In this document: one piece after another, positions 734 to 46,862 of the stretch
Layout of the letters: each line of letters starts with the position of its first letter
How positions within the stretch are numbered: position 1 is the first letter of the stretch
Assembly (NCBI GenBank): GCA_963825525.1
Contig: CAWGTN010000002.1
Span: forward strand, 1,088,001 to 1,152,000
From: an uncultured Chloroflexia bacterium
Lineage (GTDB): Bacteria > Chloroflexota > Limnocylindria > QHBO01
Reading direction: 5' to 3'
DNA: 64,000 bases
Position numbers and translations under genes: made by a program
Notes under the pieces: model-generated
Databases searched by the model: none
What the model was told of the DNA's origin: nothing
What the model saw: only the letters and a program-made list of their open reading frames with translations

Positions 734-2080
734 CTACGGCGTGGTCGCGCCGCCGGCCGACGCATTATCGAAGATCCGCGCTCCCAGCTCCAGGATGGCC
801 TCGAAATCGGGAATGAGGATGTAGCCGGCCGCACTGTTGGTCTCCACGGTCACGTACCCGTCGTCGGGCGTGAGCACCACCTGCTCGAGTGAGCCGAGGT
901 CGGCGTCCTGGGCCTCGGCGGCGATGGCCGGGATGCGATCCGATGGGATATCGGTGGCGACGTTGTCGCGGATGGCGTCGAGCAGTCCGGGAAGCGTGAC
1001 CAGCAGGTTGCCGGCCGTCAGCTTCTCGGCAATGGCGGTCAGCAGGACCTGCTGGCGGGCCGCGCGGGTGAAGTCGCTGTCCCCGGCCCCGAGGCGTGAT
1101 CGGGCGAACGCCAGGGCGGCCTGCCCGTCGAGATGGTGGCGACCCGGCGAGATATAGAAGCCACGCGTGCCGGTGAGCGTGTCGACGTACCGCGGGTCGT
1201 CGATCGCTCGCTCGACGAAGACCTCGACGCCGCCGATGGTGTCGACCACCTGCCGCATGCCGTCGATGTCGATCGCCGCGAAATAGTGAATTCGGGTGCC
1301 GAGCAGCTCCCCGATCGCCGCCTTGAGCGTGCCCGGCCCGCCGAGCGGGAACGTCTCGAGATCGGCGCCCGCCGATGACATGAGCGAGTTCAGCTTCGCG
1401 TTGTACACCCGCCCGTCACCGAGCGGCACGCCGTACAGATCGCGCGGCACCGAGATCATGGCGCCCTCCCCGGTGTGCGGGTCCAGCGTGGCGACGAGCA
1501 TCGTGTCGGTCAGGTGCTCGTCGCGCCCCTGGGCGAAATCAATGCCCACCAGCAGGACGGTGAGCCGCTCTCCGAGACCCAGATCGGGCTGGAACGAGGG
1601 TGTCGAGATGGCCACATCCTCGCCTCCCCGATCATCGAACAGTGCGCCGCCACCCTCCAGGGCCACCGAGTCGAGGGCATCGATCGCCTTCGACGCGTAG
1701 TAGGCGGGCACGCCGTGCATCGCGACGGTCACGATCACGAGAACCGCGGTGAGCCAGGTCGGCCACGAATGGACGTCGAAGCGCGAGCGCTCGTGATGGG
1801 CCTGGAGGATCGAGACGAGACGCCAGCCGAGGAGCGCCAGGTCGAGCACGATGAGCGCGATAAGAACCCGAACGTCGAGCATGCGACTGATGGCGGCCGT
1901 CCCGCCCTGCGCGACCACGATCAGGATGAGCGCCACCACCAGCACCACGGGCAGGGCGAACAGCGACGCCAGGGCCCACTGGCGGTTGTAGGCCTGGCCG
2001 ACGCCGGGGAAGACGAACGAGAGCAGCGCCGCCGCCGCGGAGCGCGAGCCCGCGGGGTGCGCTGGACGTGATCGGATCAC
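734..2080 (-). CDS. LCP (LytR-CpsA-Psr) family glycopolymer ligase with several N-terminal TM helices
   Basis: LLVGID...LTDTMLVA...ISVPRDLY, KLNS, ALAFARSR...DSDFTRAARQQ motifs. GTG start at 2080 after GGAG. Confidence 0.9.
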   Translation of the reverse strand: MIRSRPAHPAGSRSAAAALLSFVFPGVGQAYNRQWALASLFALPVVLVVALILIVVAQGGTAAISRMLDVRVLIALIVLDLALLGWRLVSILQAHHERSRFDVHSWPTWLTAVLVIVTVAMHGVPAYYASKAIDALDSVALEGGGALFDDRGGEDVAISTPSFQPDLGLGERLTVLLVGIDFAQGRDEHLTDTMLVATLDPHTGEGAMISVPRDLYGVPLGDGRVYNAKLNSLMSSAGADLETFPLGGPGTLKAAIGELLGTRIHYFAAIDIDGMRQVVDTIGGVEVFVERAIDDPRYVDTLTGTRGFYISPGRHHLDGQAALAFARSRLGAGDSDFTRAARQQVLLTAIAEKLTAGNLLVTLPGLLDAIRDNVATDIPSDRIPAIAAEAQDADLGSLEQVVLTPDDGYVTVETNSAAGYILIPDFEAILELGARIFDNASAGGATTP

Positions 2081-2171
2081 TGAACTCCGGGTGACAGAGG
2101 GCGGCGAGGGCGAGTATACCCAGACGCCGCCGCACGACCAGATGTTGCGACCGATCCGGCATACTGCGGCC

Positions 2172-2705
2172 ATGACAGCCGCGTCGCCTCGCGGTCCGGT
2201 GGAGGTCACCGTCGAGATCCCGTCCGGCAGCCGCAACAAGTACGAGTACGACCACGTACGCCACCGTTTCGTGCTGGATCGCACGCTCTACTCGAGCGTC
2301 CACTACCCGTGCGACTACGGATTCATCGAGGGCAGCATGGCCGATGACGGAGACCCGCTCGACGTGCTCGTCGTCCTTGCCGAGCCGACGTTCCCCGGCT
2401 GCGTTGTCCGTGTCCGGCCCATCGGCGTGCTCGACATGGCCGATGAGAAGGGCCACGACTTCAAGATCCTGGCGGTGGCGTCGGACGATCCGCGCTGGGA
2501 TGCCATGCACAAGCTCGAGGACCTCTCGCCGCATCGGCTGCTCGAGATCGAGAACTTCTTCAAGACCTACAAGACGCTCGAGAAGCGGCCGACGGACGTG
2601 CGCGGCTGGCTCGGCGTCGATGACGCGTGGCGAATCATCGACGCGGCGATGGCCACCGGGGCGAGTGGCGACCCCTCGGCATCGGCTCCGGGAACCTGGC
2701 GCTAG
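2172..2705 (+). CDS. ppa: Inorganic pyrophosphatase (family I)
   Basis: EIPSGSRNKYEYD, YPCDYGFI, DGDPLDVLV, FFKTYKTLE. ATG at 2172 is 6 nt after CATACT. Confidence 0.95.
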   Translation: MTAASPRGPVEVTVEIPSGSRNKYEYDHVRHRFVLDRTLYSSVHYPCDYGFIEGSMADDGDPLDVLVVLAEPTFPGCVVRVRPIGVLDMADEKGHDFKILAVASDDPRWDAMHKLEDLSPHRLLEIENFFKTYKTLEKRPTDVRGWLGVDDAWRIIDAAMATGASGDPSASAPGTWR

Positions 2706-2708
2706 CGG

Positions 2709-4025
2709 TCAGCTCCAGCCGGCTCCGAGCCGGAGCACCTGGCCGGGTCTTACCTTCCGATCGCGCGACGCGTCGCGCGTGTCGACGATGAGATCGGCCC
2801 GGGCGAAGACCGCGTCCCAGTCGATGTCGCGATGCGCGGTCACGATGACGACGCAATCCGGCTCGGCCCCCAGCCCGTCCTCAAGCGAGACGCTCTCCAG
2901 TGGCGTACCGCCCACGCCGGGGACCTCGTGGCTGGCGCCGGGATCGAAGGCAGGGAGACGCGGGTCGTGGTAGCTGACCTCGGCGCCCGCGGCCTGGAGG
3001 CCGGCGATGATCGGCGCGGCCGGAGAATTCCGGTCGTCCGACACATCGGGCTTGAAGGCCACCCCGAGCACGAGGATCCTGGCGCCGCGCAGCGCCCTGC
3101 CGCGTGAGTTGAGGGCGGTCATGACCAGCGTGATGACGTGCTCGGGCATGCGCGAGTTGATGTCGCCGGCGGTCTCGATGAAGCGCTCGTGGAATCCGAC
3201 CTCGCGAGCGCGGGAGGCGAGGTAGTACGGATCGACCGGGATGCAGTGGCCGCCGACGCCCGGTCCGGGGAAGAACGGCATGAAGCCGAACGGCTTGGTG
3301 GAGGCGCCCCGGATGACCTCCCACACGTCGAGGCCGAGCCGCTCACAGATCAGCGCCAGCTCGTTGACGAGCGCAATGTTCACGTTGCGGAAGACGTTCT
3401 CGAACAGCTTCGCCAGCTCCGCGGCATCCGGGCTCGTCATCTCGGTCACCGACGGCGAGATGGGGCGCAGGATGGCGGCCGCTCGAGCCGTGGTCGCCTC
3501 GTCGATGCCGCCGACCAGGCGAGGGATGCTCGACGACGGCCGTCCCTCACCCGGACTGACACGTTCCGGAGAGAAGGCAAGGCCGAAGTCCGCGCCGGCG
3601 CGCAGGCCATCCTCCTCGAGCAGGGACCGCAGCGGGCCCATGGTGGTGCCGGGATACGTGGTGCTCTGGAGAACGACGAGGTCGCCCTGGCGCAGCCCGC
3701 GCCGGACATAGGCGCCGGCCGCCCTGATCGGGCCGAGATCGGGCTCGCGGCTGGCGGTGACCGGCGTCGGAACGCAGATGAAGGCGACACTGGCATCGGT
3801 CCAGTCCGTCTCGGGGGTGACCGGCGTGAAGCTCCCGTTGTCGATGGCCGCGGCGATCCGCGCGCCGTCGACATCATCGATGTAGCTCACGCCGCCACGC
3901 AGCTGATCGAGACGCTCCGCGGAAGCATCCACGCCCATGACCCGGTGCCCGGCGTCAGCCAGGTCAAGCGCCAGTGGCAGGCCGACGTAGCCAAGGCCCA
4001 CCACGGCCACCGCCTCATCCGCCAT
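2709..4025 (-). CDS. UDP-N-acetylhexosamine/nucleotide-sugar 6-dehydrogenase
   Basis: GLGYVGLPLA, ICVPTP, STTYPGTT, FSPER, KLFENVFRNVNIALVNE, GVGGHCIP. AAGGAGG RBS before ATG at 4025. Confidence 0.9.
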   Translation of the reverse strand: MADEAVAVVGLGYVGLPLALDLADAGHRVMGVDASAERLDQLRGGVSYIDDVDGARIAAAIDNGSFTPVTPETDWTDASVAFICVPTPVTASREPDLGPIRAAGAYVRRGLRQGDLVVLQSTTYPGTTMGPLRSLLEEDGLRAGADFGLAFSPERVSPGEGRPSSSIPRLVGGIDEATTARAAAILRPISPSVTEMTSPDAAELAKLFENVFRNVNIALVNELALICERLGLDVWEVIRGASTKPFGFMPFFPGPGVGGHCIPVDPYYLASRAREVGFHERFIETAGDINSRMPEHVITLVMTALNSRGRALRGARILVLGVAFKPDVSDDRNSPAAPIIAGLQAAGAEVSYHDPRLPAFDPGASHEVPGVGGTPLESVSLEDGLGAEPDCVVIVTAHRDIDWDAVFARADLIVDTRDASRDRKVRPGQVLRLGAGWS

Positions 4026-4036: not shown

Positions 4037-5218
4037 TCATGCTGGATCTCCGATTCTCCGATATCGACGCAGCAGCTCGTCGGCCGAAGTCTGCCAGTTG
4101 AAGCGCTCGGTGACGGCCTGGCGGCCCCGGTCCCCCATGGCGCGCGCCGTCGCCGGATCGTCGAGGATGTTCCGCAGGGCGGCCGCCACCGCCGCGGGGT
4201 CCTCTGGATTGACCACGACTCCGGCGCCGCTCCCCTCGACCACGTCGCGAACGTCGGGAAAGTCGCTCGACACCTGAGGAATGCCTGCCGCCATGTACTG
4301 GAACAGCTTGTTGGGAAGCGCCAGGCGATAGCTCAGTGAGGCGGGCTGAACGATGGACACCCCGACCGTCGCCGAGGCGGCGAACGGAACCACCTCGCCG
4401 GACGGGACGGACGGGACGAGATGCGCGCGATCGGTCAGGGATCGGCGCGCGATCTCGGCCGCGATCTCCTCGGTCGAACCGCCGCCGGCGCCGAGGCAGA
4501 CCAGGTGTGCCTGCGGCAGCTGCTCCATGGCCGCGACGAGCTGCTCCAGGCCGCGGTGCGGCATGATGCCGCCGATGTAGAGCACGATCGGCGCGTCCGG
4601 AGGGACGGTCGAAGCTGCGGGCAGCTCGCGAAGGTCGCGCCGGACGACCGGTGCGGACTCGGTCGGATAGTTCGGGACGATGGCGACGTCGCTCACCCCG
4701 TACCGGCGCTCGAGCTCCGGCCCGACGCCGGGATTGGCGACCATCACGAACGCCGCCCGGGGCACGTAGCGCGCCTCGACCCGGCCGTACCACTGCCGGT
4801 TCAGGAAGTCATAGGCCGGCGACCGGCCGCGTGCCGTGCGCCCGAGCCACAGCTCGTGCGAGTCGTAGACGAACGGGATGCGCATCGCGCTCGCCAGCGG
4901 GCCGATGACGGCCAGTGCATCGGCGTCGTGCGCGTGAAGGATGTCGGGGCGGGTGCGGCGCACTGCCGCCGAGAGACGGCCGTGATGCATGGCGAAGCGC
5001 AGGCCCGGAACGCGCGGGCCGCGGCGCGAGATGCGGTGGACCGACGCTCCGTCGCGCTGCTCCGAGGACGGCAGGTCCGCCCGACCATCGGCGATGATGG
5101 TGACCGCGTAGCCGGCATCCATCAGGGTCCGCGCCTCACGTTCGACGCGCGTGTCGTTGGTGAACGGGTTTCTGACGAGCATCGTGACCCGGGGGCGGGA
5201 TGCGGTGCGCGAGGACAT
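4037..5218 (-). CDS. Glycosyltransferase family 4
   Basis: DTRVEREA N-terminus, HAHD, YDSHE, LPNKLFQYMAAGIPQV. Confidence 0.85.
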   Translation of the reverse strand: MSSRTASRPRVTMLVRNPFTNDTRVEREARTLMDAGYAVTIIADGRADLPSSEQRDGASVHRISRRGPRVPGLRFAMHHGRLSAAVRRTRPDILHAHDADALAVIGPLASAMRIPFVYDSHELWLGRTARGRSPAYDFLNRQWYGRVEARYVPRAAFVMVANPGVGPELERRYGVSDVAIVPNYPTESAPVVRRDLRELPAASTVPPDAPIVLYIGGIMPHRGLEQLVAAMEQLPQAHLVCLGAGGGSTEEIAAEIARRSLTDRAHLVPSVPSGEVVPFAASATVGVSIVQPASLSYRLALPNKLFQYMAAGIPQVSSDFPDVRDVVEGSGAGVVVNPEDPAAVAAALRNILDDPATARAMGDRGRQAVTERFNWQTSADELLRRYRRIGDPA

Positions 5219-5283
5219 CGGCCTAGCCTAGCCGAGCCGTGGAATCGCGAGCGGCGGCATACTGGCGCCATGAGGAGCCACGC

Positions 5284-6195
5284 GTGAGAGTGCTGGTCAC
5301 CGGGGCCACCGGCTTCGTCGGCGGGCACCTGGTACGGGAGCTGACGGTGGCCGGCCACGAGGTCGTGGCTGCCCCGGCGGCACGTGATCTGGACATCGCC
5401 GACGCACCGGCCGTTCGCGCCTTCGTCTCAGCGGCGCAACCGCAGGTGATCGCCCACCTCGCGGCGGTGGCATCCAGCCAGAGAGCGGCCGGCAACACGG
5501 AGCTCGCCGTCCGCACGAACCTCGGCGGAACGCTGGCGGTGGCACGGGCGATCTCGGCCGTCGATCCTCGGCCCGGGCTCCTCCTCGTCTCCTCGGCGGA
5601 GGTCTATGCGACCCCGGCCGACGCCGCCGTCGCCATCGACGAGAGCTCGCCGACCACGCCGCGCGGCACGTACGGGCTGCTCAAGCTGGCACAGGAGGCA
5701 ATTGCGCTCGAACGTTCCGCCGAGGACGGATTCCCGCTCGTGATCGTCCGACCCTTCAACCACGTGGGGCCTGGGCAGCCCCCGATCGCCGCGGTGCCGT
5801 CCTTCGCCGCCGGCATCGTCTCCATTCGTGAGGGCACGGCAGACCGGTTGCGGGTGGGAAACCTGGACGTGGAGCGCGACATCGGAGACGTGCGCGACGT
5901 TGCGGCGGCCTATCGGCTCCTCCTGGAGGGGCTGGTGGAGGGCACCCGGGGCAGGCCGGCGGAAACGTTCAACGTATCGACGGGGACGCCCACCCTGCTG
6001 CGATGGGTGGTCGAGGAGCTCGGGCGCCTGGCCTCCGTCGAGCCGATGGTGGTCGTGGACGAGACGCTCGTCCGAAGCGACGAACCGCGGCGCATCGTCG
6101 GGGACGCCACCCGCCTTCGCGACGCCACCGGCTGGCAACCACGGTTCGATCCGAGCACCACCCTCGCCGACCTGCTGGCAGCGCTGGGCGGCTGA
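5284..6195 (+). CDS. Extended SDR, GDP-4-keto-6-deoxy-sugar reductase (Rmd-like)/GDP-mannose dehydratase family
   Basis: VLVTGATGFVG, SSAEVY, YGLLK (YxxxK), RPFNHVGPGQ, VGNLDVERD. GAGGAG RBS before GTG at 5284. Confidence 0.75.
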   Translation: MRVLVTGATGFVGGHLVRELTVAGHEVVAAPAARDLDIADAPAVRAFVSAAQPQVIAHLAAVASSQRAAGNTELAVRTNLGGTLAVARAISAVDPRPGLLLVSSAEVYATPADAAVAIDESSPTTPRGTYGLLKLAQEAIALERSAEDGFPLVIVRPFNHVGPGQPPIAAVPSFAAGIVSIREGTADRLRVGNLDVERDIGDVRDVAAAYRLLLEGLVEGTRGRPAETFNVSTGTPTLLRWVVEELGRLASVEPMVVVDETLVRSDEPRRIVGDATRLRDATGWQPRFDPSTTLADLLAALGG

Positions 6196-6199
6196 GCCG

Positions 6200-7330
6200 G
6201 TGCCGAAGCCCCCCGGGCCACTCGAGCTCGTCTTCATCGCCAACCCGGGTCACATCCTGGTCCAGCGCTGGATCTCGTTCTTCGCGCGGCGGGGCCACCG
6301 GGTGACGGTGCTCGAGGGCTTCGGCAACGGCGCCGGAGCCGATCCGGGCCACGGGATCCGGGTGATTCGATACGAGGCCAGGAGCAGGGTCCCTCTGCCG
6401 TTTGCGTCGATGCTCCACGCACGGCGGACGGTCCGACAGCTGCTGCGCGAGATCGGCCCGGACGTGGTCCACGCCCACACCGTGCGTCCCTACGGATGGC
6501 AGGCGGGCGTCGCCGGCGTCCATCCCTACGTGATATCGACCTGGGGATCGGACGTCCTGCTTCCCCTCCCCGGCCGGCGGGCGCAGTTCTGGCAGCGGCG
6601 AACCCTCTCGCGGGCCGATCTCGTCACGGCCGTATCCCCGCACATGCGGGACGCGGCCATTCGGCACGGCGCTCGGCCGGAGCGCGTGGTCCAGGTTCAG
6701 TTCGGCGTGGACACTGCCCGCCATGCCCCCGCGTCAACGGTTCCGGCGGAAACCACGCGCCTCGGCCTCGATGGACGTCCGTTCGTGTTCTCGCCTCGAG
6801 CAATGAAGCCGATCTACAACCACCGCACCATCCTGGATGCCTTCGCCCGCCTCACGGGCTCGCCGGTGCTGGTGATGACCGGCCGCAACGCCGATGCGGG
6901 CCACGCCGGCGAGCTCGGCGTCCAGATGGACGAGCTCGGAATTCGCGACCGGGTGCGGATCGTGGACGACGCCAGCGAGGACGAGATGCTGGCCCTCTAC
7001 CAGTCGGCGGCGGTCGTGGTCTCCGCTCCGCACAGCGACAGCTTTCCGCTCAGCCTGCTCGAGGCCATGGCCTGCGGCACGCCGGTCGTGGCCGGTGATC
7101 TCCCGCCGGTGAGGGCAGTGCTCGACCCGATCGCGCCCGACCGCGTGGTGGCCACTGGTGACGCATCGGCCATGGCTGCGGTGCTGGAATCGACCCTGGC
7201 CCTCGACCGGGACGCGCGCGAGAAGCTGGGACAGCGCCTGCGATCGGTCGTCATCGACACTGCGGACTACGAGACGAACATGCTGCGCATGGAGGGCCTG
7301 TACCGCGACCTGGCGGGCCGGAGCGTCTAG
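6200..7330 (+). CDS. Glycosyltransferase family 4
   Basis: VHAH, STWGSDV, FGVD, SDSFPLSLLEAMACGTPVV. Real start is GTG 6200; the upstream part of the track ORF overlaps the previous gene. Confidence 0.85.
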   Translation: MPKPPGPLELVFIANPGHILVQRWISFFARRGHRVTVLEGFGNGAGADPGHGIRVIRYEARSRVPLPFASMLHARRTVRQLLREIGPDVVHAHTVRPYGWQAGVAGVHPYVISTWGSDVLLPLPGRRAQFWQRRTLSRADLVTAVSPHMRDAAIRHGARPERVVQVQFGVDTARHAPASTVPAETTRLGLDGRPFVFSPRAMKPIYNHRTILDAFARLTGSPVLVMTGRNADAGHAGELGVQMDELGIRDRVRIVDDASEDEMLALYQSAAVVVSAPHSDSFPLSLLEAMACGTPVVAGDLPPVRAVLDPIAPDRVVATGDASAMAAVLESTLALDRDAREKLGQRLRSVVIDTADYETNMLRMEGLYRDLAGRSV

Positions 7331-8049
7331 CGCTCGGGAAGAAGTCGGGACCGGATCTCCGCGAACTCGACATTGGCGCGGTCGTAGTCCTCCGGCCGGC
7401 CGATGTCGAGCCAGAACCCGTCGAAGTCATGGCTGAGCGGACCGGCATCGGCCTCGATGAGATCACGCATGAGCCCGTCGAATCCCAGCGGACTGCCGGC
7501 CGAATAGCGTTGCAGCGTCGATCGGCTGACGGCGTAGACGCCGATGGCAACCGTGTACGGGATCGCCGGCTTCTCTCGGAATCCGACAACGCGTCCGCCC
7601 TCCACGTCCAGGACGCCGAACTCGATGCGCGCCTCGCGCCGTGCGGTCGCCACCGTGATCGGCGCACCGCTGGCGGCGTGCGTGGCGAGCATGGCCGCGT
7701 AGTCCATCTCGGTCAGCGTGTCGCCGTTGAGGACCAGGAAGTGCTCCGGCAATCGATCGGCGACCTGCACCACCGGGCCCATGGTGCCCAGCGGCTCCTG
7801 CTCACGCGCATAGTCGATCGCCAGGCCCCACTGCGATCCGTCGCCGACGTAGGCCTCGATCAGCTCGCCGAAGTGGCCGATCGCGAGCGTCGCGGAGCCG
7901 AAGCCCTGGTGCGCCAGCTGACGGATCACGATCTCGAGCACCGAGCTCTCGTCGCCGATGGGAACCAGCGGCTTCGGCAGCGTGATGGTGAACGGCCGAA
8001 GGCGGGTGCCCTTGCCGCCCGCCAGGATGACCGCGTGCGGCGCGGTCAC
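7327..8049 (-). CDS. Sugar-1-phosphate nucleotidyltransferase (probably guanylyltransferase, PtmE/GMPP-like)
   Basis: AVILAGGKGTRLRPFT...LPKPLVPIG, EPLGTMG, LNGD, WLDIGRPEDY. Translationally coupled to the upstream dehydratase (GTGA overlap). Confidence 0.85.
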   Translation of the reverse strand: MTAPHAVILAGGKGTRLRPFTITLPKPLVPIGDESSVLEIVIRQLAHQGFGSATLAIGHFGELIEAYVGDGSQWGLAIDYAREQEPLGTMGPVVQVADRLPEHFLVLNGDTLTEMDYAAMLATHAASGAPITVATARREARIEFGVLDVEGGRVVGFREKPAIPYTVAIGVYAVSRSTLQRYSAGSPLGFDGLMRDLIEADAGPLSHDFDGFWLDIGRPEDYDRANVEFAEIRSRLLPER

Positions 8050-9035: not shown

Positions 9036-9126
9036 GCCGTTTCCTCGTGAGTCGATGGGCTTCGAACGTGCGCCAGTATGGCGGAGGCCGGTCGCTGCAC
9101 GACGGCCACGGGTACAATCCGCGACC

Positions 9127-10629: not shown

Positions 10630-10633
10630 TCCG

Positions 10634-28855: not shown

Positions 28856-28887
28856 TGGCTGCCGATTCTACCCGGCAGCCGCGTCGC

Positions 28888-37141: not shown

Positions 37142-37145
37142 CGGA

Positions 37146-38876: not shown

Positions 38877-38993
38877 CGGTTCACGGTCATGCGGCGGCTC
38901 GGCTGCGGCCCTCGCGGCCGCCGGGCGGGGCGAGGCGCCATGCTAGCGGATGCCGTGGCCGGGCGCACGAACGACGGCATGCGCCGGAGCCGG

Positions 38994-39779
38994 CTATCGG
39001 CGGCGGAGGGCATCGCGAATCGCACGAAGCCGAAGCTGCACGACGAGCATCATCGCTTCGCCCACGATGCCGCCGCTCATCTTCGACGAGCCGGCCACCC
39101 GCTCGCGGAAGATGATCGGCACCTGCACGATGCGGGCACCGCGCCGGTGGGCCCACCAGGTGGTCTCGATCTGGAAGCCGTACCCGGAGCCGGCAGACTC
39201 GCGCAGCCGCACCGACTCGAGAGTCTCGCGCCGCCACGCCTTGAAGCCACCTGTCAGGTCGCGGTACGGAAGCAGGAGCACGGTGCGTGCGAACAGGGTC
39301 CCTCCGCGGCTGATGAGCTTGCGGTACCAGGGCCAACCGACCGTGTCGCCGCCGGGCATGTAGCGAGTGCCGAGGACGAGGTCCGCATCGCGCATGAGGG
39401 GCTCGAGGAGCCGGGGGAGCGCCGCCGGATCGTGACTGAAGTCCGCGTCCATCTGCACGATGGCGCGAGTGTCCGAGCGGGCCAGGACCCAGGCAAACGC
39501 TTCGCGGTAGGCGACCCCCAGACCCTGCTTGGCCGCGCGATGCAGCACGGTGACGCGGGACTCGCGCGACGCAATCGTGTCGGCGAGCTCGCCGGTGCCA
39601 TCCGGCGAGGCATCGTCCACCACGAGCAGCGACGCCTCCGGCAGTGCGCTCAGGATCGCCGCCGCGAGCGGTTCGAGATTGTCCCGCTCGTTGTAGGTGG
39701 GCAGGACGACCCAGGTGCCCCGGCCGGCGGCCAGCCCGACCCCCGGCGTCTCGGGCGGGTCAGCGCCCGATGCCGACAT
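38994..39779 (-). CDS. Polyprenol-monophosphate glycosyl (mannose) synthase, GT2 (Ppm1/DPM1-like)
   Basis: LPTYNERDNL, VDDASPDGTG, QMDADFSHDP, DLTGGFKAW, GYGFQIE, FRERVAGSSKM. Confidence 0.88.
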   Translation of the reverse strand: MSASGADPPETPGVGLAAGRGTWVVLPTYNERDNLEPLAAAILSALPEASLLVVDDASPDGTGELADTIASRESRVTVLHRAAKQGLGVAYREAFAWVLARSDTRAIVQMDADFSHDPAALPRLLEPLMRDADLVLGTRYMPGGDTVGWPWYRKLISRGGTLFARTVLLLPYRDLTGGFKAWRRETLESVRLRESAGSGYGFQIETTWWAHRRGARIVQVPIIFRERVAGSSKMSGGIVGEAMMLVVQLRLRAIRDALRRR

Positions 39780-41037
39780 ACGCAATCCCTGCAGCGTCGA
39801 ATGGGGCGCGATCCACGGCATTCCGGCCATCCACGAACAGCTCGAGCTCCGGGATCAGGCGTGGATCGAGGGTGCGGTAGGCATCATGGTCCGCCTGGAG
39901 CACCACGACGCTCGCCGGCTCCGGGTGCTCGAGGTCGTAGGGCTCGAACCCCACGCTTCGCAGGTGGTCGCTGTCGTAGTACGGATCATGTCCGTAGACT
40001 CGCGCACCGGCCGCCAGCAGCTCGTCGCGAAGGCGGAAGGCGGAGCTGAAGGCGTCCTCGCGGACGTCACCGCGATACGCGACGCCGAGGACGAGGACGT
40101 TCCGGCCATCCAGCGATCCGATGCGATCCTCGATGGTATCGACGGCGAATGCGCCCATCCCCTCGTTGATCTCGCGCGCCAGCGGCGGAATCCGCAGCTC
40201 CGGGTCATCGTTGAACAGAAAGTGCGGATAGACCGGGATGCAGTGGCCGCCGACACCAACGCCGGGCTGGTGAATGTGGCTGTACGGCTGCGAGTTGGCG
40301 GCATCGATGACCTCCGTGACGTTGATGCCGTTGCGAGCGGCGAACTGGGCCAGCTCGTTGGCGTAGGCGATGTTCACGTCGCGGTAGGTCGTCTCGGCCA
40401 GCTTCGTCATCTCGGCTGTCTCCGCCGACGCCACCGCCCGGACCTCCGTCCCGGGATCAAGCGCGGCGCGGTAGAACTCGGCCGCGCGACGCGTGCTCTC
40501 GTCGCTCGTCCCGCCCACGATCTTCGGATAGCGCCCAAGGTCCAGGAACACGCGTCCCACCAGCACCCGTTCGGGACTGAACGCGAGGAAGAGATCCTCG
40601 TCCAGCGTCCGGCCGCTGCCAGCGGCCAGCATCGGCCCGAACCGCTTGCGGGTGGTGCCGACCGGCAGGGTGGTCTCGTACACCACCAGCGCGTGCTCTC
40701 CCAGGTTGGCGGCGATGTCGCGGGTGGCCGCGTCGATCGGGCCGAAGTCGATCTGTCGGTCGGCATCGACCACCACCGGGACGATGACCACCACGACCTC
40801 CGCATCGGAGAACCCGCTCGCATCGGCCCAGGTCGTGGCGCGCAGCTTGCCGGCGGCCACCAGGCCGGGAACCCGGTCGATGAGCGCCTGTTCGTCCCTG
40901 TGTGGCGACTCGCCACGATTGAGGGTGTCGACGATCCGCGAATCGACGTCGACGCCCAGCACGTCATGTCCACGCGACGCGTACTGGACCGCCAGCGGCA
41001 ACCCGATGTGACCCAGCCCGACCACGGCGACCCTCAT
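39760..41037 (-). CDS. UDP-GlcNAc 6-dehydrogenase (WbpA-like)
   Basis: GLGHIGLPLA, FSPER, KLAETTYRDVNIA, GVGGHCIP. Clustered with wbpB/E/I/D-like genes. Confidence 0.85.
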   Translation of the reverse strand: MRVAVVGLGHIGLPLAVQYASRGHDVLGVDVDSRIVDTLNRGESPHRDEQALIDRVPGLVAAGKLRATTWADASGFSDAEVVVVIVPVVVDADRQIDFGPIDAATRDIAANLGEHALVVYETTLPVGTTRKRFGPMLAAGSGRTLDEDLFLAFSPERVLVGRVFLDLGRYPKIVGGTSDESTRRAAEFYRAALDPGTEVRAVASAETAEMTKLAETTYRDVNIAYANELAQFAARNGINVTEVIDAANSQPYSHIHQPGVGVGGHCIPVYPHFLFNDDPELRIPPLAREINEGMGAFAVDTIEDRIGSLDGRNVLVLGVAYRGDVREDAFSSAFRLRDELLAAGARVYGHDPYYDSDHLRSVGFEPYDLEHPEPASVVVLQADHDAYRTLDPRLIPELELFVDGRNAVDRAPFDAAGIAYVGIGR

Positions 41038-42092
41038 GCCAGTGCCTCCGACAGCGCGGTGCCGGAAATCGCCTCACCGGAGTTCGCGGACTCGACCATC
41101 TTGCGGGCGAGCAGCAGGGCGACCATGGCATCGTGCGGCTCGACCGGCGGCGGACCGCCATCGCGGACGGCCCGGGCGAACTCATCGAGCTCCACGGCCA
41201 GCGGCTCCGCGCGGCGGATCGACCGCCGGGTCATCTCGCCCTCCGCCACCGAGTTGATCGGCGTCCCGAAGCCATCGGCGCCGCGATTCTGCCAGGTCCG
41301 ATCAGCATCCGGGTTGGCGTAGAAGTCGAGGTGCTGGGCGATGTAGTCGGCGACGTAGAAGCCGCGCTCGCCGGTGACCGTCAACGTCCTGCGCTTGGTT
41401 GCCGTGAGCCAGTTGATGTTGAGAATGCCGATCACTCCGTTCTCGAACTTCATGATGCCGTTGAAGAGATCCTCGTGCTCGGTATGAATTCGCCGCTCGG
41501 CCTCCGCGAAGATGCGGATCGGCTCGGAGCCGATGAGGTAGCGCATGACGTCCAGGTCGTGCGGCGCCAGGTCCACCACGACCCCGACGTCGCGAATCCG
41601 CGCCGGGAACGGCCCCAGGCGGGTGGCGCTGATCTGGAAGATCCGGCCCAGCTCGCCATCCGCGAGGCGCCGATGAAGCTCTCGAATGGCCGGGTTGAAG
41701 CGCTCGATATGGCCGACAGTCAGCATTCGATCGGCCACGCCGGCCGCGTCAATCATGCGCATCGCCTCGTCTCGCGTCGCGGCGATCGGCTTCTCGACCA
41801 GGACGTTGGCACCGGCCCCCAGCGCGGCCAGCGTCACCGGCAGGTGCAGGCTGGTGGGCGCCACGATGCTCACGAGGTCCAGGCCCTCCTCGGCCAGCAT
41901 GCGCTCCGGGTCCTGATAGCCTCGCGCGCGTCGCCCGGCCGTCGCGCGTGCGACCGCCGACTCGTCCGGGTCGGCCACGGCGACCAGCTCGACGCCGTCG
42001 ACCGCCTCGTCCCACACCCGCACGTGATTCCGGCCCATCATGCCGAGGCCGATGACGCCGGCACGCAGGGTCGGCAGGCTGGCGGACGTCAT
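41034..42092 (-). CDS. Gfo/Idh/MocA oxidoreductase, UDP-GlcNAcA 3-dehydrogenase (WbpB/WlbA-like)
   Basis: GLGMMGRNH, VEKP, GHIERFNPA, DLAPHDLD; gene context. Confidence 0.78.
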   Translation of the reverse strand: MTSASLPTLRAGVIGLGMMGRNHVRVWDEAVDGVELVAVADPDESAVARATAGRRARGYQDPERMLAEEGLDLVSIVAPTSLHLPVTLAALGAGANVLVEKPIAATRDEAMRMIDAAGVADRMLTVGHIERFNPAIRELHRRLADGELGRIFQISATRLGPFPARIRDVGVVVDLAPHDLDVMRYLIGSEPIRIFAEAERRIHTEHEDLFNGIMKFENGVIGILNINWLTATKRRTLTVTGERGFYVADYIAQHLDFYANPDADRTWQNRGADGFGTPINSVAEGEMTRRSIRRAEPLAVELDEFARAVRDGGPPPVEPHDAMVALLLARKMVESANSGEAISGTALSEALA

Positions 42093-43195
42093 CCCTGACC
42101 CGCGCTCGGCTCGATCGGACCCAGGGTCCGTGCCGTGGCGTTGACCGCCTCGATGACCGCGGAAACCTCGTCATCGGTCAGGCTGGGATGCACCGGGATC
42201 GACAGGACCTCCCCGGTCAGGCGATCGGTCACCGGGAGGTCGGCATCGCCATAGCCCATGGCGATGAACGGCTTCTGGCGATGAACCGGGATCGGGTAGT
42301 AGATGCCGCTTCCCACACCACGTTCGCGGAGCGCATCGGCAAACGCGTCGCGCTCACGCACGCGGATCGTGTACTGGTGATAGACGTGGGTCACGCCGGG
42401 TCGGGACCGCGGAACCGCCACGCCCTCGAGCTCGGCGTCGTAGCGTGCCGCGATCTGGCGGCGACGCTCGTTATTGGCGGGGAGCTTCTGGAGCTGGGCC
42501 AGGCCGATCGACGCGGCGATATCGGTCATTCGGAAGTTGTAGCCCACGATGTCGTGGTGATACCGGACATTCATGCCGTGCTCACGCAGCAGCCGGACGC
42601 GAGCGGCCAGCTCCGCGTCATCGGTCGTCATGGCCCCGCCCTCGCCGGTCGTCATGTTCTTGGTCGGGTAGAAGCTGAACGTGCCGGCGCCCCAGGTGCC
42701 GGACCGCCGGTCACCGATGGAGGCGCCATGGGCCTGGCAGGCGTCCTCGATCACCGCAAGGCCGTGGCGCTCGGCGATCTCGGCGATTGCCGTCATGTCG
42801 GCCGGCTGGCCGTACAGGCTGACCGGCATGATGGCCTTCGTGCGCGGCGTGATGGCGGCCTCGATGCGGGCGGGGTCGATGCAGAAGTCACGCTCGTCGA
42901 TGTCGACCAGTACCGGGCGCGCTCCGGTGTACAGGATGCTGTTCGCGCTCGCGATGAAGGTGAATGAGACGGTGATGACCTCGTCCTCGGCGCCGATGCC
43001 GTAGCCGAGCAGGGCAAGGTGGAGCGCCGTGGTCCCGGAGCTGGTCGCCACGGCGTGCTCGACGCCGATGTAGGCGGCGAAGGCCTCCTCGAACTCGCGT
43101 ACGCGAGGGCCCTGGGCCAGCGACCCGGAGTCCAGCGCCTGCCAGACTCGCTCCTTCTCTTCCTCCCCCATCTGGGGACGCGCGATCGGGATCAC
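42089..43195 (-). CDS. DegT/DnrJ/EryC1/StrS aminotransferase (WbpE/WlbC-like)
   Basis: SSGTTALH, EDACQAHG, FSFYPTKNMTTGEGG, GYNFRM, IYYPIPVH. Confidence 0.88.
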   Translation of the reverse strand: MIPIARPQMGEEEKERVWQALDSGSLAQGPRVREFEEAFAAYIGVEHAVATSSGTTALHLALLGYGIGAEDEVITVSFTFIASANSILYTGARPVLVDIDERDFCIDPARIEAAITPRTKAIMPVSLYGQPADMTAIAEIAERHGLAVIEDACQAHGASIGDRRSGTWGAGTFSFYPTKNMTTGEGGAMTTDDAELAARVRLLREHGMNVRYHHDIVGYNFRMTDIAASIGLAQLQKLPANNERRRQIAARYDAELEGVAVPRSRPGVTHVYHQYTIRVRERDAFADALRERGVGSGIYYPIPVHRQKPFIAMGYGDADLPVTDRLTGEVLSIPVHPSLTDDEVSAVIEAVNATARTLGPIEPSAGQG

Positions 43196-44301
43196 GTTGC
43201 GGTTGCCTCCTGGGCTGCGGGCGCGGTTCGATGATGGCGACGCTCGAGTGCGTCCACGATGCGGTCCGAGGCTCGGCCATCACCGTAGAGCGCGGGGCGT
43301 GGTCGTGAACGGTCCATGAATGCAGGATCGGCGAGGGCTGCTGCGAGCGCACGAGGGTCCGCGTCGACGACGCGGTTCCAGCCGGCGCGCACGGTCTCGA
43401 CCCATTCTGTTTCAGAGCGGAGCGTGATGCACGGCACGCCCGACAGGTAGGCCTCCTTCTGGACGCCACCGGAGTCGGTGGCGATGGCATGCGCTCGCGC
43501 CTCGAGCGCCACCATCTGAAGGTATCCGACCGGCTCGATCGGGATGACGTTGGCCGGCAGTGGACCCACCGTTGCGAGGAGCGCTCGCGTCCGCGGGTGC
43601 ACGGGAAAGATCACCGGCAGATCGATGGCCAGGCCCTCCAGGATCGGCGCGAAACGGCGAGGATCATCGACGTTCTCGGCGCGATGCATGGTGAGGAGCA
43701 CGAACCGGTCCAGGCCCCTGGCCACCTCGGGGAGATGGTCGTCCGAGCGGGCGGAGGCCCAGGCATGGGCGTCGACCATCACGTCTCCCACGAGCTCGGC
43801 GCGATCCTCGAGCCCCTCGCGACCGAGGTGCTCCATCGCCGTCTCGGTGGGCGCCAGGAGCACATCGGACAGGTGGTCGGCGACGATCCGATTCCGCTCC
43901 TCCGGCATCCGCGGATTGAACGAGCGCAGGCCGGCCTCGACGTGCGCCAGCCATGGCCGGCGATCGTCGGGGTACGCGAGCTTCGACGCGACGACCGCCG
44001 CGGCCAGCGTGGAGTTCGTGTCGCCGTAGACCATGACCCCATCCGGCTGATGCTCGAGCATGATCGGCTCGAGACGGCGCAACATCTCGCCCGTCATCAC
44101 GCCGTGGGTACCGCTGCCGACCTCCAGGTTGACGTCCGGCGCCGGAATCTCGAGGTCGCGGAAGAACGCGGCGCTCATGGCGTCGTCGTAGTGCTGGCCG
44201 GTGTGGACCAGGATCTCGGTGTGCCGAGCACGGAGCGCACGGCTGACGGGGGCCGCCTTGACGAACTGCGGCCGCGCGCCGACGACGGTGAGGACCCTCA
44301 C
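43192..44301 (-). CDS. Non-hydrolysing UDP-hexNAc 2-epimerase (WbpI/WecB family)
   Basis: VVGARPQFVK, HTGQHYD, YGDTNSTLA, HVEAGLRSF..RMPEE.NR, TDSGGVQKEAY, RSETEWVET (WbpI-type). Confidence 0.88.
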   Translation of the reverse strand: MRVLTVVGARPQFVKAAPVSRALRARHTEILVHTGQHYDDAMSAAFFRDLEIPAPDVNLEVGSGTHGVMTGEMLRRLEPIMLEHQPDGVMVYGDTNSTLAAAVVASKLAYPDDRRPWLAHVEAGLRSFNPRMPEERNRIVADHLSDVLLAPTETAMEHLGREGLEDRAELVGDVMVDAHAWASARSDDHLPEVARGLDRFVLLTMHRAENVDDPRRFAPILEGLAIDLPVIFPVHPRTRALLATVGPLPANVIPIEPVGYLQMVALEARAHAIATDSGGVQKEAYLSGVPCITLRSETEWVETVRAGWNRVVDADPRALAAALADPAFMDRSRPRPALYGDGRASDRIVDALERRHHRTAPAAQEATAT

Positions 44302-44897
44302 CCGCCGCCCCGCGCTTCGATGGTTGCCCCGCAGCGTGGGCATGGCCCGCTGAACGGGACGCCGTCCTCATCATCTCGCAATGCCTGGCCGCAGCGGCAG
44401 GCCGTCCCCAGCCGCCGCGCCGGATTCCCGACGACCAGCTCGTGATCGGCGACGTCGCGCGTCACGACGCTGCCGGATCCGACCATGGCCCACGCGCCGA
44501 TCGTGACGCCGGGCAGGATCGTGCTGTTGGCGCCCAGGGCGGCACCGTGGCGGACGAGAATCGGCCCGACCACCCAGTCGTCGTCGGACTTCAGGCTTCC
44601 ATCGGCATTGATGGCGCGCGGCAGTCGATCATTGGTGAAGCAGACGTGCGGACCGATGAAGACGCCATCCTCGACGGTCACCCCGTGATAGAGGCTGACG
44701 TTGTTCTGCACCTTGCATCGGTCGCCGATGACGACGCCGGCGTCCACGTACACGTTCTTCCCGATGATGCAGTCGGCGCCGATCCGGGCGCGCTCGCGCA
44801 CCTGGGCCTGGTTCCAGATGCTCGTTCCCGGACCGATCATCGCGTCGGCCGACACGTCGGCCGTGGCGTGGACGCGCACGTTCGTACGCTCGGTCAT
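44298..44897 (-). CDS. Hexapeptide-repeat N-acetyltransferase (WbpD/WlbB-like)
   Basis: IGPGTSIW, CKVQNNVSLY.GV.VEDGVFIGP.VCFTND, VGNPAR, C-terminal CRC...CPRC. Confidence 0.85.
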   Translation of the reverse strand: MTERTNVRVHATADVSADAMIGPGTSIWNQAQVRERARIGADCIIGKNVYVDAGVVIGDRCKVQNNVSLYHGVTVEDGVFIGPHVCFTNDRLPRAINADGSLKSDDDWVVGPILVRHGAALGANSTILPGVTIGAWAMVGSGSVVTRDVADHELVVGNPARRLGTACRCGQALRDDEDGVPFSGPCPRCGATIEARGGG

Positions 44898-44933
44898 GTG
44901 ATCTCCTTGGGCGGCGCCCATTCTACTGTGGCG

Positions 44934-45788
44934 TCAGCCCTGGCTGAAGTCGAGCACCACGAGGAGTCGCTCGATCGTTGACATGTCGAATGCCGGACGC
45001 ACGAATGCGGTCTGGGTCAGGGCGTTCGGGTCCGGCTCGACCGCCTGGATCTGACCGATGAGGAGCCCACCCGGATATCGGCTCGACGCGTCGTCGAAGG
45101 TGAGGCCGGCGCTGACCACGCTGCCGCCGACCGGAAGCGCCTCGGTGATCGGCACATTGACCATGATGAGCTGTCCGCCCGGCTGCCCGCGGACCTCGCC
45201 CAGGGCGCGGGTCGACTGCTCGAGCGCGATGACGACCGAGCGGGTGTCGACCACCAGCTGGACCCGCGCCGTGTCGTCGGTGACGGCGACCACGGTCCCG
45301 GCCAGTGCCCCCGCGCCGTCGGCGTTCCCGACCACGGGCATGCCCACGCGCAGCCCGTCGCTCGAGCCGGCATCGATCCCCACCTCCCAGGCCAGGTTGG
45401 AGGGGTCCCGGCTGATGACCCGCACGGGCAGCAGGTCCATCTCGAGCGCCCGACCGATGCCGAGCAGCTGGCGAAGCTCGTTGTTCTCGCGGGATGCCTC
45501 CGTCAGCTCGGCGATCCGCTGCTCGGCGCCGGACAGCTCGCGACGCAACCGATCGTTCTCGGACCGCAGCCGGTCGATCTCACCGACGGCACCCACCAGC
45601 CCCGCCACGCCCTCGCCGATGCCGGTCAGGGTGCCGCGGACTGGATCGAGCGCGCGGGTGGTCGCGCGCTGGAGAGCCAGGGCGGGCTCGGTCGAGCTGG
45701 CGAGAAGCATCAGCAGGCTCGCGATCGTGAATCCGGCGAACCACAGTCCGCTCCGACGCCGCCGATTCGGGCTGGGTGGCCCGTACAT
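44934..45788 (-). CDS. mreC: Rod shape-determining protein MreC
   Basis: TM + coiled coil (ENDRLR, ENNELRQLLG) + beta domains (IDAGSSDG, YPGGLLIG). Follows mreB. Confidence 0.85.
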   Translation of the reverse strand: MYGPPSPNRRRRSGLWFAGFTIASLLMLLASSTEPALALQRATTRALDPVRGTLTGIGEGVAGLVGAVGEIDRLRSENDRLRRELSGAEQRIAELTEASRENNELRQLLGIGRALEMDLLPVRVISRDPSNLAWEVGIDAGSSDGLRVGMPVVGNADGAGALAGTVVAVTDDTARVQLVVDTRSVVIALEQSTRALGEVRGQPGGQLIMVNVPITEALPVGGSVVSAGLTFDDASSRYPGGLLIGQIQAVEPDPNALTQTAFVRPAFDMSTIERLLVVLDFSQG

Positions 45789-45803
45789 CTCGCGCCGCCC
45801 GAA

Positions 45804-46862
45804 TCAGCGCGGCGCGCGCGTGAACTGCTCGCTGACCAGCACCCGCTCGAGCGTGTCGAGGTCCTCGAGCACCCGGCCGGTGCCGCGCACCACGCAGGTC
45901 AGCGGATCATCGGCGATGTGCACCGGCATCTGGGTCGACTCCGCCACCCGCTTGTCGAGCCCCACGAGCAGGGCACCGCCGCCGGCGAGCACGATTCCCT
46001 GGTCCATGATGTCGGCAACCAGCTCCGGCGGCGTCTCCTCGATCGTCTCCTTGATGGCCTCGATGATCTGGACGATCGATGGCTCGAGCGCCTCGCGGAT
46101 CTGGTCGCCGCCGACCTCGACGCTGCGCGGCAGGCCGGTGAGCAGGTCGCGGCCACGGAACGTGACGGTGTGCTCCGAATTCTCCTCGGGGTACGCGGAG
46201 CCGACGGCGATCTTGATGTCCTCGGCGGTCCGCTCACCCATCAGCAGGTTGTACTCGCGCCGGGCGAAGCTGACGATGTCGGTGTCCATCTCGTCGCCGC
46301 CGATGCGAATCGATCGGCTGACGACGATCCCACCCAGGCTGACGACGGCCACCTCGGTGGTTCCACCGCCGATGTCGACGATGAGGCTGCCGGACGGCTC
46401 GCTCACCGGGAGGCCGGCGCCGATGGCCGCCGCCATGGGCTCCTCGATGAGGCGCGCCCAGCGTGCGCCGGCATTGATCGTGGCGTCGCGGACCGCGCGC
46501 TTCTCGACCTCGGTCACGCCCGACGGGATGCCGACCAGGACGCGCGGCCGCGGGATGCGGGCGTATCGGTCGTGCACCTTGTTGATGAAGTACCGAATCA
46601 TCTGCTCGGTGACGTCGAAGTCGCTGATCACGCCGTCGCGCAGCGGCCGGATGGCCACGATGTTCGCCGGCGTCCGCCCCACCATGCGCTTGGCCTCGGC
46701 ACCGATGGCCAAGACGCGCTTCGAGCGAGTGTCCATGGCCACGACCGATGGCTCGCTGATGACGATCCCGCGGTTCCGGACGGTGACGAGCGTGTTCGCC
46801 GTCCCGAGGTCGATCCCGACGTCGTGGCTGAGGAGGCCGAGCAGGCCGTCGAAGAGTCCCAA
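45804..46862 (-). CDS. mreB: Rod shape-determining protein MreB
   Basis: GIDLGTANT, EPSVVA, IRPLRDGVI, EEPMAAAIGAG, VDIGGGTTE, GGGALL. TTG start at 46862. Confidence 0.95.
   Translation of the reverse strand: MGLFDGLLGLLSHDVGIDLGTANTLVTVRNRGIVISEPSVVAMDTRSKRVLAIGAEAKRMVGRTPANIVAIRPLRDGVISDFDVTEQMIRYFINKVHDRYARIPRPRVLVGIPSGVTEVEKRAVRDATINAGARWARLIEEPMAAAIGAGLPVSEPSGSLIVDIGGGTTEVAVVSLGGIVVSRSIRIGGDEMDTDIVSFARREYNLLMGERTAEDIKIAVGSAYPEENSEHTVTFRGRDLLTGLPRSVEVGGDQIREALEPSIVQIIEAIKETIEETPPELVADIMDQGIVLAGGGALLVGLDKRVAESTQMPVHIADDPLTCVVRGTGRVLEDLDTLERVLVSEQFTRAPR

Follow-up and report, generated by a model that had tools for sequence, protein, structure and literature searches.

Gene content of the locus

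We analyzed a 64-kb stretch of contig CAWGTN010000002.1 from an uncultured Chloroflexia bacterium (assembly GCA_963825525.1), hereafter the window, which encodes four proteins ending in CWB2 cell wall-binding repeats that lie among genes for the synthesis of surface glycans. Because the raw list of open reading frames (ORFs) is noisy at a guanine-cytosine (GC) content of ~70%, ORFs were chosen by third-position GC, and the resulting 54 candidates were scanned against Pfam; NCBIfam, ARAGORN, and Rfam were also run on the window genes or sequence. CWB2 (PF04122) was found in 4 of the 54 ORFs, all on the minus strand, with three matched stretches in the C-terminal part of each protein and scores of 180 to 211 bits versus a gathering cutoff of 24.9:

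24505-27504, minus strand: subtilase with Fervidolysin-prodomain, Peptidase_S8, Big_5, and three CWB2 repeats (Pfam; CWB2 E-value 4.7e-56)
28888-30282, minus strand: CAP/SCP-domain protein with three CWB2 repeats, the module spanning 28891-29787 (Pfam; CWB2 E-value 3.3e-63)
30406-32811, minus strand: glycoside hydrolase of family 18 (GH18) with three CWB2 repeats (Pfam; CWB2 E-value 8.7e-54)
32845-34743, minus strand: protein with a clan-CD-peptidase-like N-domain (33754-34605) and three CWB2 repeats (Pfam; CWB2 E-value 3.7e-56)

In all four translations, the N terminus, judged by eye and with start codons not fixed, runs from a basic segment through a hydrophobic stretch to an Ala-rich end of the A-x-A type, a pattern suggesting that these proteins are exported by the Sec pathway. 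The four secreted triple-CWB2 proteins that the original prediction, made from the sequence alone, had placed between 24.5 and 34.7 kb were thus recovered, the repeats by Pfam and the putative signal peptides by visual inspection.

The cargos all look like enzymes or enzyme-like domains, and no protein of the window looks like a lattice-forming S-layer protein. The CWB2 prism that tiles the Clostridioides difficile S-layer is present, and the clan-CD-like protein is the most conserved of the four and the first gene after mreC in two of the gene orders found in relatives (arrangements B and C, described below), as might be expected if the four proteins built a true paracrystalline S-layer like that of SlpA. 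We regard this as very improbable, given that each of the four cargos resembles an enzyme or enzyme-like family and that, among the 54 ORFs, Pfam detected neither an SlpA-like low/high molecular weight (LMW/HMW) protein nor SecA2 or any other match to the SecA family. Because a lattice protein and SecA2 are absent from the window, the locus is not a full counterpart of the C. difficile S-layer system, and the surface-protein layer postulated in the original prediction is not supported by its gene content.

The repeats form CWB2 anchoring modules

The four window modules are 54 to 57% identical among themselves. The module of the CAP protein aligns end to end with residues 134 to 434 of C. difficile Cwp6 (5j72; E-value 2e-34), and all eight of its sequence matches in the PDB are Cwp6, Cwp8, or SlpA chains from C. 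difficile. An AlphaFold2 model of this module, built on a 54-sequence alignment, was predicted with high confidence (predicted local distance difference test [pLDDT] score, 93.1). In Foldseek comparisons of the kind proposed with the original prediction, the predicted module matched Cwp6 (5j72) with a template modeling (TM) score of 0.92 and a root-mean-square deviation of 1.8 Å, Cwp8 (5j6q) with a TM score of 0.89, and the SlpA HMW chains with scores of 0.84 to 0.89, the next matches scoring ~0.2. The PILL motif, P-[ILV]-[ILV]-[ILV], is present in all 12 window repeats, and three copies of it occur in 44 of 54 related modules; in C. difficile, three nonidentical repeats are reported to be needed, and the ILL of PILL to be essential, for anchoring (PMC4973711). 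Thus, on all sequence and fold criteria tested, including the predicted structure, the repeats are CWB2 triple anchoring modules. These modules are basic (net charge +1 to +8; isoelectric point [pI], 8.2 to 10.1), whereas the cargos are acidic or neutral (pI 5.0 to 7.1), which provides weak evidence for a fit to an anionic ligand.

Genes for a putative acidic wall polymer

The four CWB2 genes belong to an array of 17 codirectional genes, overlapping or separated by short gaps, that begins at mreB (47045) and ends with the stop codon of the subtilase (S8) gene (24505). Within this array and around it are genes for glycan initiation, elongation, and attachment, including those for glycosyltransferases (GTs) and for enzymes acting on nucleoside diphosphate (NDP) sugars:

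734-2284, minus strand: LytR-CpsA-Psr (LCP) transferase, of the type that moves glycopolymers onto peptidoglycan, with N-terminal membrane segments, seen as hydrophobic segments in the translation (PF03816, E-value 2.1e-30, 106 versus 24.6 bits; TIGR00350, 103 versus 62 bits)
20635-22140, plus strand: Wzy_C-family membrane protein, of the polymerase or ligase/O-oligosaccharyltransferase type (PF04932, E-value 1e-13)
22128-23099, minus strand: WecA/TagO-type polyprenyl-phosphate N-acetylglucosamine (GlcNAc)-1-phosphate transferase, the putative initiator (PF00953, E-value 4.1e-38)
23116-23192, minus strand: tRNA-Pro(UGG), a landmark between the S8-CWB2 gene and tagO (ARAGORN and Rfam)
34842-36329, minus strand: GT4 e, with a probable true start near 36030 and a conserved place upstream of the CWB2 block (Pfam)
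37146-38876, minus strand: membrane-anchored extracytoplasmic foldase of the PrsA/PpiD-like type, with SurA_N, three parvulin domains, and one N-terminal hydrophobic anchor (PF00639, E-value 4.1e-49, three stretches)
38994-39830, minus strand: GT2 of the polyprenyl-phosphate sugar synthase type, kept in arrangements A, B, and C (PF00535, E-value 1.2e-27)
39760-41037, minus strand: NDP-sugar 6-dehydrogenase no. 2, WbpA/UDP-N-acetylmannosamine (ManNAc) dehydrogenase-like (TIGR03026, 321 versus 190 bits)
41034-42092, minus strand: GFO/IDH/MocA UDP-GlcNAc 3-dehydrogenase-like protein, WbpB/GnnA role (NF040723, 289 bits, under the cutoff of 450)
42089-43195, minus strand: DegT-type sugar aminotransferase, WbpE role (PF01041, E-value 1.3e-132)
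43192-44343, minus strand: nonhydrolyzing UDP-GlcNAc 2-epimerase, WbpI/WecB role (TIGR00236, 281 versus 210 bits)
44298-44921, minus strand: hexapeptide sugar N-acetyltransferase, WbpD/WlbB role (top PDB match 3mqg, E-value 7e-36)
44934-45788, minus strand: mreC, at the head of the codirectional array (Pfam)
45804-47045, minus strand: mreB, linked with mreC to the CWB2 block in arrangements B and C (Pfam)

The initiator scores 130 bits against TIGR02380, under the cutoff of 326, and its homologs in relatives are 73 to 79% identical and are encoded directly after the S8 gene. Together with the genes of the left block described below, the listed polysaccharide genes and the PrsA-like foldase gene named in the original prediction are all present by Pfam and NCBIfam, one of the five GT4-type genes being a weak match.

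The five genes at 39760-44921 form a contiguous run with 4-bp overlaps that contains all five Wbp/Wlb enzyme classes, and the set stays together in arrangements B and C as well. The Wbp enzymes of Pseudomonas aeruginosa and the Wlb enzymes of Bordetella make up a pathway to UDP-ManNAc(3NAc)A. By comparison, the window run has the same five classes in one overlapping series; the top PDB match of its acetyltransferase, 3mqg, is titled "Lipopolysaccharides biosynthesis acetyltransferase" and is presumably Bordetella WlbB, and its aminotransferase matches WbpE (3nu7) strongly (E-value 2e-75), although not as the top PDB match. In contrast to the Wbp/Wlb pathway, the 3-dehydrogenase is nearest to the GnnA type, and the product would enter a wall polymer rather than lipopolysaccharide. 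The nearest PDB entry of this enzyme, 7bvj (E-value 2e-29), which we take to be the UDP-GlcNAc 3-dehydrogenase GnnA, carries the less specific title "Oxidoreductase, NAD-binding". Because the enzyme best matches UDP-GlcNAc 3-dehydrogenase models and 7bvj, the order of reactions is probably of the archaeal/GnnA type. With respect to NCBIfam cutoffs, the 2-epimerase alone passes an equivalog model and the 6-dehydrogenase passes a subfamily model, the other three enzymes falling under the cutoff. At the family level, the run fits the synthesis of UDP-2,3-diacetamido-2,3-dideoxy-hexuronic acid.

Conservation of the locus in Limnocylindria

Members of the Limnocylindria (Ellin6529) occur widely in soils and fresh waters, and we are aware of no cultured representative. 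A profile search of genome contigs with the CWB2 alignment gave at least 633 pattern matches, 560 of which encode relatives; the best 80 of these 560 stretches, representing 70 loci (denoted L001 and so on), were searched by tblastn with 41 window proteins. The closest loci among the matches listed are at most 75% identical and come from metagenome-assembled genomes (MAGs) titled Candidatus Limnocylindria or "uncultured Chloroflexia", whereas the farther ones belong to Actinomycetota (Agromyces, Microbacterium, Pedococcus, Ornithinimicrobium, Acidimicrobiia, and Nitriliruptoria) and Dormibacterota. The GC content of the window, even at 0.67 to 0.72 over 32 windows of 2 kb and ~70% overall, agrees with the mean of the class Limnocylindria (68.9% GC, with a mean genome size of 2.39 Mbp; PMC10608941), and together with the identity of the best relatives it upholds the Chloroflexota origin suspected in the original prediction.

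Orthologs of the CWB2 block were found in 26 of the 70 loci, accompanied by glycan genes in 20, the other 6 loci being on short contigs that break off within the block. Three arrangements could be distinguished. Arrangement A, that of the window, reads GT2-foldase-mazG-GT4-[clan-CD-like, GH18, CAP]-rph-rdgB-S8-tRNAPro-tagO-(wzyC)-LCP-GGDEF and is found in full in L001, L002, L005, L017, and L025 and in part in L004, L019, L032, and L069; the Wzy_C gene adjoins tagO also in L001, L002, and L025. Arrangement B is mreB-mreC-[clan-CD-like, GH18, CAP]-(GT4)-rph-rdgB-S8-wbpD-I-E-B-A (L006, L009, L011, L015, L041, and L064; cut short in L049 and L063). Arrangement C, mreB-mreC-CWB2 protein-GT2-DUF3048-wbpD-E-B-A-I, occurs in L013, L016, L030, and L045, which come from more distant genomes (29 to 38% identity in the N-domain). 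The tRNA-Pro gene occupies the same place in all six arrangement-A loci checked (L001, L002, L005, L017, L019, and L025) and in none of the three arrangement-B loci checked. In all three orders alike, no more than a few genes separate the CWB2 genes from those for the diacetamido-uronic acid. The gene orders indicate that the wbp-like genes have shifted at least twice relative to the CWB2 genes with adjacency kept, and because the adjacency survives these rearrangements, it is here that a functional link between CWB2 and the wbp-like genes finds its best support. The even GC content and conserved synteny through three gene orders likewise point to an old core locus rather than an island, as had been suggested from the interleaved core genes, and rph, rdgB, mazG, glnA, and mreBC are all present in the window by Pfam and NCBIfam.

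The expectation that CWB2 and polysaccharide genes would be syntenic across relatives held in 20 of the 26 orthologous loci, the other 6 being truncated, whereas 40 of the 44 loci with solitary CWB2 genes have no glycan genes nearby. The latter figure is what one would expect if the neighborhood bore no relation to the ligand, that is, if CWB2 bound peptidoglycan or a polymer encoded elsewhere and the local glycan genes served another purpose. Such an interpretation could also invoke the small size of Limnocylindria genomes (PMC10608941) and the retention of the housekeeping genes rph, rdgB, and mazG and of tRNA-Pro in the same block, showing that order alone does not imply shared function. 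We nevertheless consider it unlikely: the wbp-like genes changed position across arrangements A, B, and C without losing their adjacency to the CWB2 block, the basic charge of the modules suits an acidic sugar of the kind predicted, and the same genetic logic is experimentally documented in C. difficile (PMC4973711).

Several features of individual loci stand apart from the shared gene order. The MFS transporter gene at 23269-24492 (plus strand), between the S8-CWB2 gene and tRNA-Pro, is found only in the window; tRNA-Pro and tagO come immediately after the S8 gene in six relatives of arrangement A, so that the MFS gene appears to be a small insertion beside the tRNA gene. A second LCP gene, whose product is 30 to 36% identical to the window LCP protein, lies between tagO/wzyC and the GGDEF gene, ~1 to 2.6 kb after tagO, in L001, L002, L005, L017, L019, L025, L032, and L069; the window has no room for it at 20395-20635, its sole LCP gene in 64 kb being that at 734-2284. 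Some close relatives (L007, L008, L014, L015, L019, L034, L039, L069, and P0093) come from MAGs titled Steroidobacteraceae, Binatia, Zixibacteria, or Patescibacteria. These contigs are probably misbinned Limnocylindria DNA, since in L015 and L019, where mreB or rph is present, the gene is 82 to 92% identical to that of the window.

The clan-CD-like N-domain

The N-domain at 33754-34605 (minus strand) has no Pfam or NCBIfam match. Its predicted structure (pLDDT 86) bears a weak likeness to clan CD peptidases, with gingipain R as the best match (E-value 9.4e-4, TM score 0.33) and CHAT, C11, and caspases also among the matches. Among cluster members in a protein atlas, Peptidase_C25 is annotated on 29% and CHAT on 41%, which points in the same direction and proves nothing. 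The motif GHGNG is invariant in the N-domain alignment. Two candidate nucleophile positions vary by lineage. Of 20 sequences, 8, from the window and arrangement A, have His at position 149, and the other 12 have Cys; a second Cys (VYCGE) is kept in arrangements A and B and replaced by Tyr in C. We considered the His at position 149 as the remnant of a lost catalytic Cys and dropped this assignment because the second Cys, conserved in A and B, is a candidate as well; the protein may be a pseudoenzyme in some lineages.

A probable second, variable glycan block

To the left of the CWB2 genes, the window contains a further group of glycan genes:

2709-4010, minus strand: NDP-sugar 6-dehydrogenase no. 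1, a putative uronic acid maker, with three UDPG_MGDP_dh domains (TIGR03026, 370 versus 190 bits)
4037-5218, minus strand: GT4 a (Glyco_transf_4/Glycos_transf_1)
5239-6195, plus strand: SDR sugar epimerase/dehydratase (PF01370, E-value 3.3e-41)
6200-7330, plus strand: GT4 b (Pfam GT4 domains, NCBIfam GT4 families)
7327-8049, minus strand: sugar-1-phosphate nucleotidyltransferase (PF00483, E-value 1.1e-39)
8046-9035, minus strand: LegB-like NDP-sugar 4,6-dehydratase (TIGR04180, 444.5 bits, just under the cutoff of 475)
9001-10629, plus strand: Wzx-type (MOP superfamily) flippase (Polysacc_synt PF01943, E-value 1.6e-23)
10634-11689, minus strand: GT4 c, with a homolog between the CAP gene and rph in arrangement-B relatives (Pfam)
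11544-12566, minus strand: weak GT4-like ORF d (PF13692 alone, E-value 1.4e-6; no NCBIfam match)

In L037, the interval between glnA and the pyrophosphatase gene (7222-10891) holds two CWB2 genes in place of this 2.7-12.6 kb block. The glnA/pyrophosphatase site thus seems to be a slot for variable surface genes, and because the block is replaced in L037, its Wzx, GT4, and LegB-like genes probably specify a second, lineage-variable glycan. The window is therefore likely to contain at least two glycan modules, and the single complete polymer pathway that had been read into it is not supported. At the left edge, a partial gene at 2-715 (plus strand) matches Capsule_synth weakly (E-value 2.1e-5) as well as "surface carbohydrate biosynthesis" models, and the polysaccharide region may continue past this edge.

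These observations raise the question of whether the glycan genes, in part or as a whole, specify a protein O-glycan, with the Wzy_C protein as oligosaccharyltransferase, or a capsule or exopolysaccharide, rather than an anchor polymer. PF04932 is the O-antigen ligase family, the NCBIfam match of the window protein is a weak one to the "putative O-glycosylation ligase" model TIGR03097 (E-value 1.8e-6), the absence of the 2.7-12.6 kb block from the L037 interval is expected of a variable surface glycan, and the partial gene at 2-715 is of the capsule type. Conversely, an LCP protein and a WecA/TagO enzyme, hallmarks of a peptidoglycan-linked polymer, are present, and both are encoded directly after the last CWB2 gene in relatives. 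We regard O-glycosylation or capsule synthesis as distinctly unlikely overall, the left block and the Wzy_C protein being the better candidates for such a role.

Other features of the window

Two further genes travel with the locus, encoding a DUF3048 protein (17690-18835, plus strand) and a GGDEF diguanylate cyclase (18848-20395, minus strand); the GGDEF gene follows LCP/tagO in arrangement A, and in arrangement C the DUF3048 gene is flanked by GT2 and wbpD. A cyclic di-GMP riboswitch tying the GGDEF gene to the CWB2 genes was considered and dropped, since the Rfam scan of the window returned tRNA-Pro only, with no riboswitch and no other RNA. The tRNA-Ala of 92 nt reported by ARAGORN at 40563-40654 (minus strand) lies inside the NDP-sugar dehydrogenase gene, has no counterpart in the Rfam results, and is probably a false positive. 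A scan for promoters and terminators over 22000-41900 gave no site of either kind (1.0 and 4.6, respectively, in shuffled sequence), which is uninformative at 70% GC. On the far side of the window, the gene at 56613-60134 (plus strand) lies downstream of a cluster for sugar uptake and catabolism (47-56 kb) and encodes a protein of 1173 aa in which DUF6851 is joined to a vanadium-chloroperoxidase-like helical domain, FG-GAP repeats, and ASPIC/UnbV.

A model for anchoring on the local polymer

Taken together, these data make it probable, in our judgment, that the window holds a core envelope locus of Limnocylindria in which four exported enzyme-like proteins are docked noncovalently, through CWB2, on a locally encoded acidic wall polymer. 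In this model, the WecA/TagO enzyme would prime the polyprenyl phosphate carrier, the five Wbp/Wlb-like enzymes would provide the acidic UDP-2,3-diacetamido-2,3-dideoxy-hexuronic acid, and the GT2 and GT4 enzymes would lengthen the chain, which would then be flipped; the Wzy_C protein may polymerize it, and the LCP enzyme would link it to peptidoglycan. The membrane-anchored parvulin foldase would aid the folding of the exported proteins, whose basic CWB2 prisms would dock noncovalently on the acidic polymer. Secretion, the sugar product, attachment of the polymer, and above all its binding by CWB2 are deduced here from sequence and gene content.

Several points weigh against this model. Four of the five Wbp-like enzymes fall under equivalog cutoffs, and the best solved relatives of the aminotransferase are not WbpE, so that the sugar product can be assigned at the family level only. 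The sole flippase of the window lies in the variable left block, missing at the corresponding site of L037, and core genes (glnA, resB, and others) interrupt the series of glycan genes. The loci were picked by likeness to the CWB2 modules of the window itself and are enriched for orthologs in small genomes, and shared ancestry could therefore explain much of the synteny; moreover, the sample consists of CWB2-bearing loci by design, polymer loci without CWB2 lying outside it. Among the 44 solitary CWB2 loci, a glycan-gene match was found in only 4 (L047, L057, L061, and L070), at a relaxed threshold. When Pfam was applied to 57 ORFs drawn from six loci of Actinomycetota, Dormibacterota, and Acidimicrobiales, in which the triple-CWB2 cargos were GH12, GH43, S8 with PA, and GSDH, GTs lay beside CWB2 genes in one alone, that of Microbacterium stercoris (L047), where GT4s, a WecB-like epimerase, and an acyltransferase are encoded beside three CWB2 genes. 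Finally, the predicted binding of CWB2 to the local polymer has indirect support, from the basic modules and the gene linkage. Many cwp genes are scattered in C. difficile as well, so the solitary loci do not contradict the model; they indicate that adjacency to glycan genes is a property of one core block alone.

Relation to known anchoring systems

To our knowledge, CWB2 has been studied almost exclusively in C. difficile. In this bacterium, the polysaccharide PSII binds the CWB2 proteins, and the PSII locus adjoins cwp genes (Willing 2015, PMC4973711). The window shares with the C. difficile Cwp/SlpA system the three nonidentical CWB2 repeats, PILL, the triangular-prism fold (TM scores of 0.84 to 0.92, the window side being a predicted model), enzyme cargos including a protease, and adjoining genes for GTs, an initiator, a MOP-type flippase, and an LCP protein. 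The C. difficile-like genetic logic asserted in the original prediction is thus recognizable, with CWB2 genes surrounded by genes for an initiator, an LCP protein, a flippase, GTs, and acidic-sugar synthesis and with a linkage that survives rearrangement. The two systems differ in that the window belongs to Chloroflexota at 70% GC and yielded no SlpA-type lattice protein, SecA2, uppS2, or pgm2/manC pair. Furthermore, the acidic group of PSII is a phosphodiester, whereas a diacetamido-uronic acid is predicted here, with binding suggested by the genes. The window protease is a subtilase and not, like Cwp84, papain-like.

In Bacillus anthracis, the SLH domain anchors on an acidic secondary wall polymer that is pyruvylated by CsaB. 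The principle of a three-repeat anchor on such a polymer is the same, but the SLH fold is unrelated to that of CWB2, and neither an SLH domain nor a pyruvyltransferase was found by Pfam among the 54 window ORFs. A closer chemical parallel is provided by wild-type Geobacillus stearothermophilus, in which S-layer proteins are reported to be anchored on a nonpyruvylated wall polymer containing 2,3-diacetamido-2,3-dideoxymannuronic acid (PMC4232325). There, the polymer, charged by the class of sugar predicted here, is the noncovalent dock; by contrast, the conserved N-terminal binding region is described as having neither SLH nor CWB2, and the docked proteins form lattices. CWB2 itself was defined on Bacillus subtilis CwlB (LytC) and has been reported from Micrococcales (PMC5817068); in both cases the repeats carry wall hydrolases in nonclostridial monoderms, whereas five of the six Actinomycetota-type loci inspected lack a conserved glycan locus beside the CWB2 genes. 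The novelty originally seen in a CWB2 system outside Clostridia accordingly falls away, given these occurrences in Bacillales and Micrococcales and the name "cell wall-binding repeat-containing protein" under which both NCBI and JGI list Limnocylindria proteins. In public protein collections, 6742 of 8000 scored candidates matched at an E-value ≤1e-10, and a 98% identical protein was found.

In Peptostreptococcaceae, wall-polymer enzymes codistribute with CWB2 anchors, according to a preprint (10.1101/2025.04.02.646754) whose text contains no word starting with "Chloroflex" or "Actinomycet" and whose figures and supplements may already show CWB2 in Chloroflexota. In line with the original prediction, our literature search, in which hits for PF04122 and product-name terms were judged by title or abstract, found no description of a CWB2/wall-polymer system in Chloroflexota, and the literature found on Limnocylindria contained nothing describing a cell envelope or S-layer.

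Implications

The locus probably represents a known kind of CWB2/wall-polymer anchoring in a new phylum and an uncultured class, with a probably different polymer chemistry, and suggests that such anchoring operates far outside the Firmicutes. More tentatively, and with considerable doubt, we propose that CWB2/wall-polymer anchoring is an old, Terrabacteria-wide trait that forms a core, mreBC-tied envelope locus in Limnocylindria, where the prism would read a teichuronic-type diacetamido-uronic polymer rather than a phosphodiester. If this is true, CWB2 would acquire a new class of ligand, the C. difficile anchor would be merged with the polymer chemistry of Geobacillus, and there would be genetic evidence for a Gram-positive-type wall in the uncultured Limnocylindria. 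The locus predicts a Limnocylindria envelope with a peptidoglycan-linked acidic polymer and a few conserved, noncovalently docked exoenzymes. CWB2-green fluorescent protein fusions could serve to probe Limnocylindria cells, and if binding is confirmed, both the ligand range and the evolutionary depth of CWB2 would widen.

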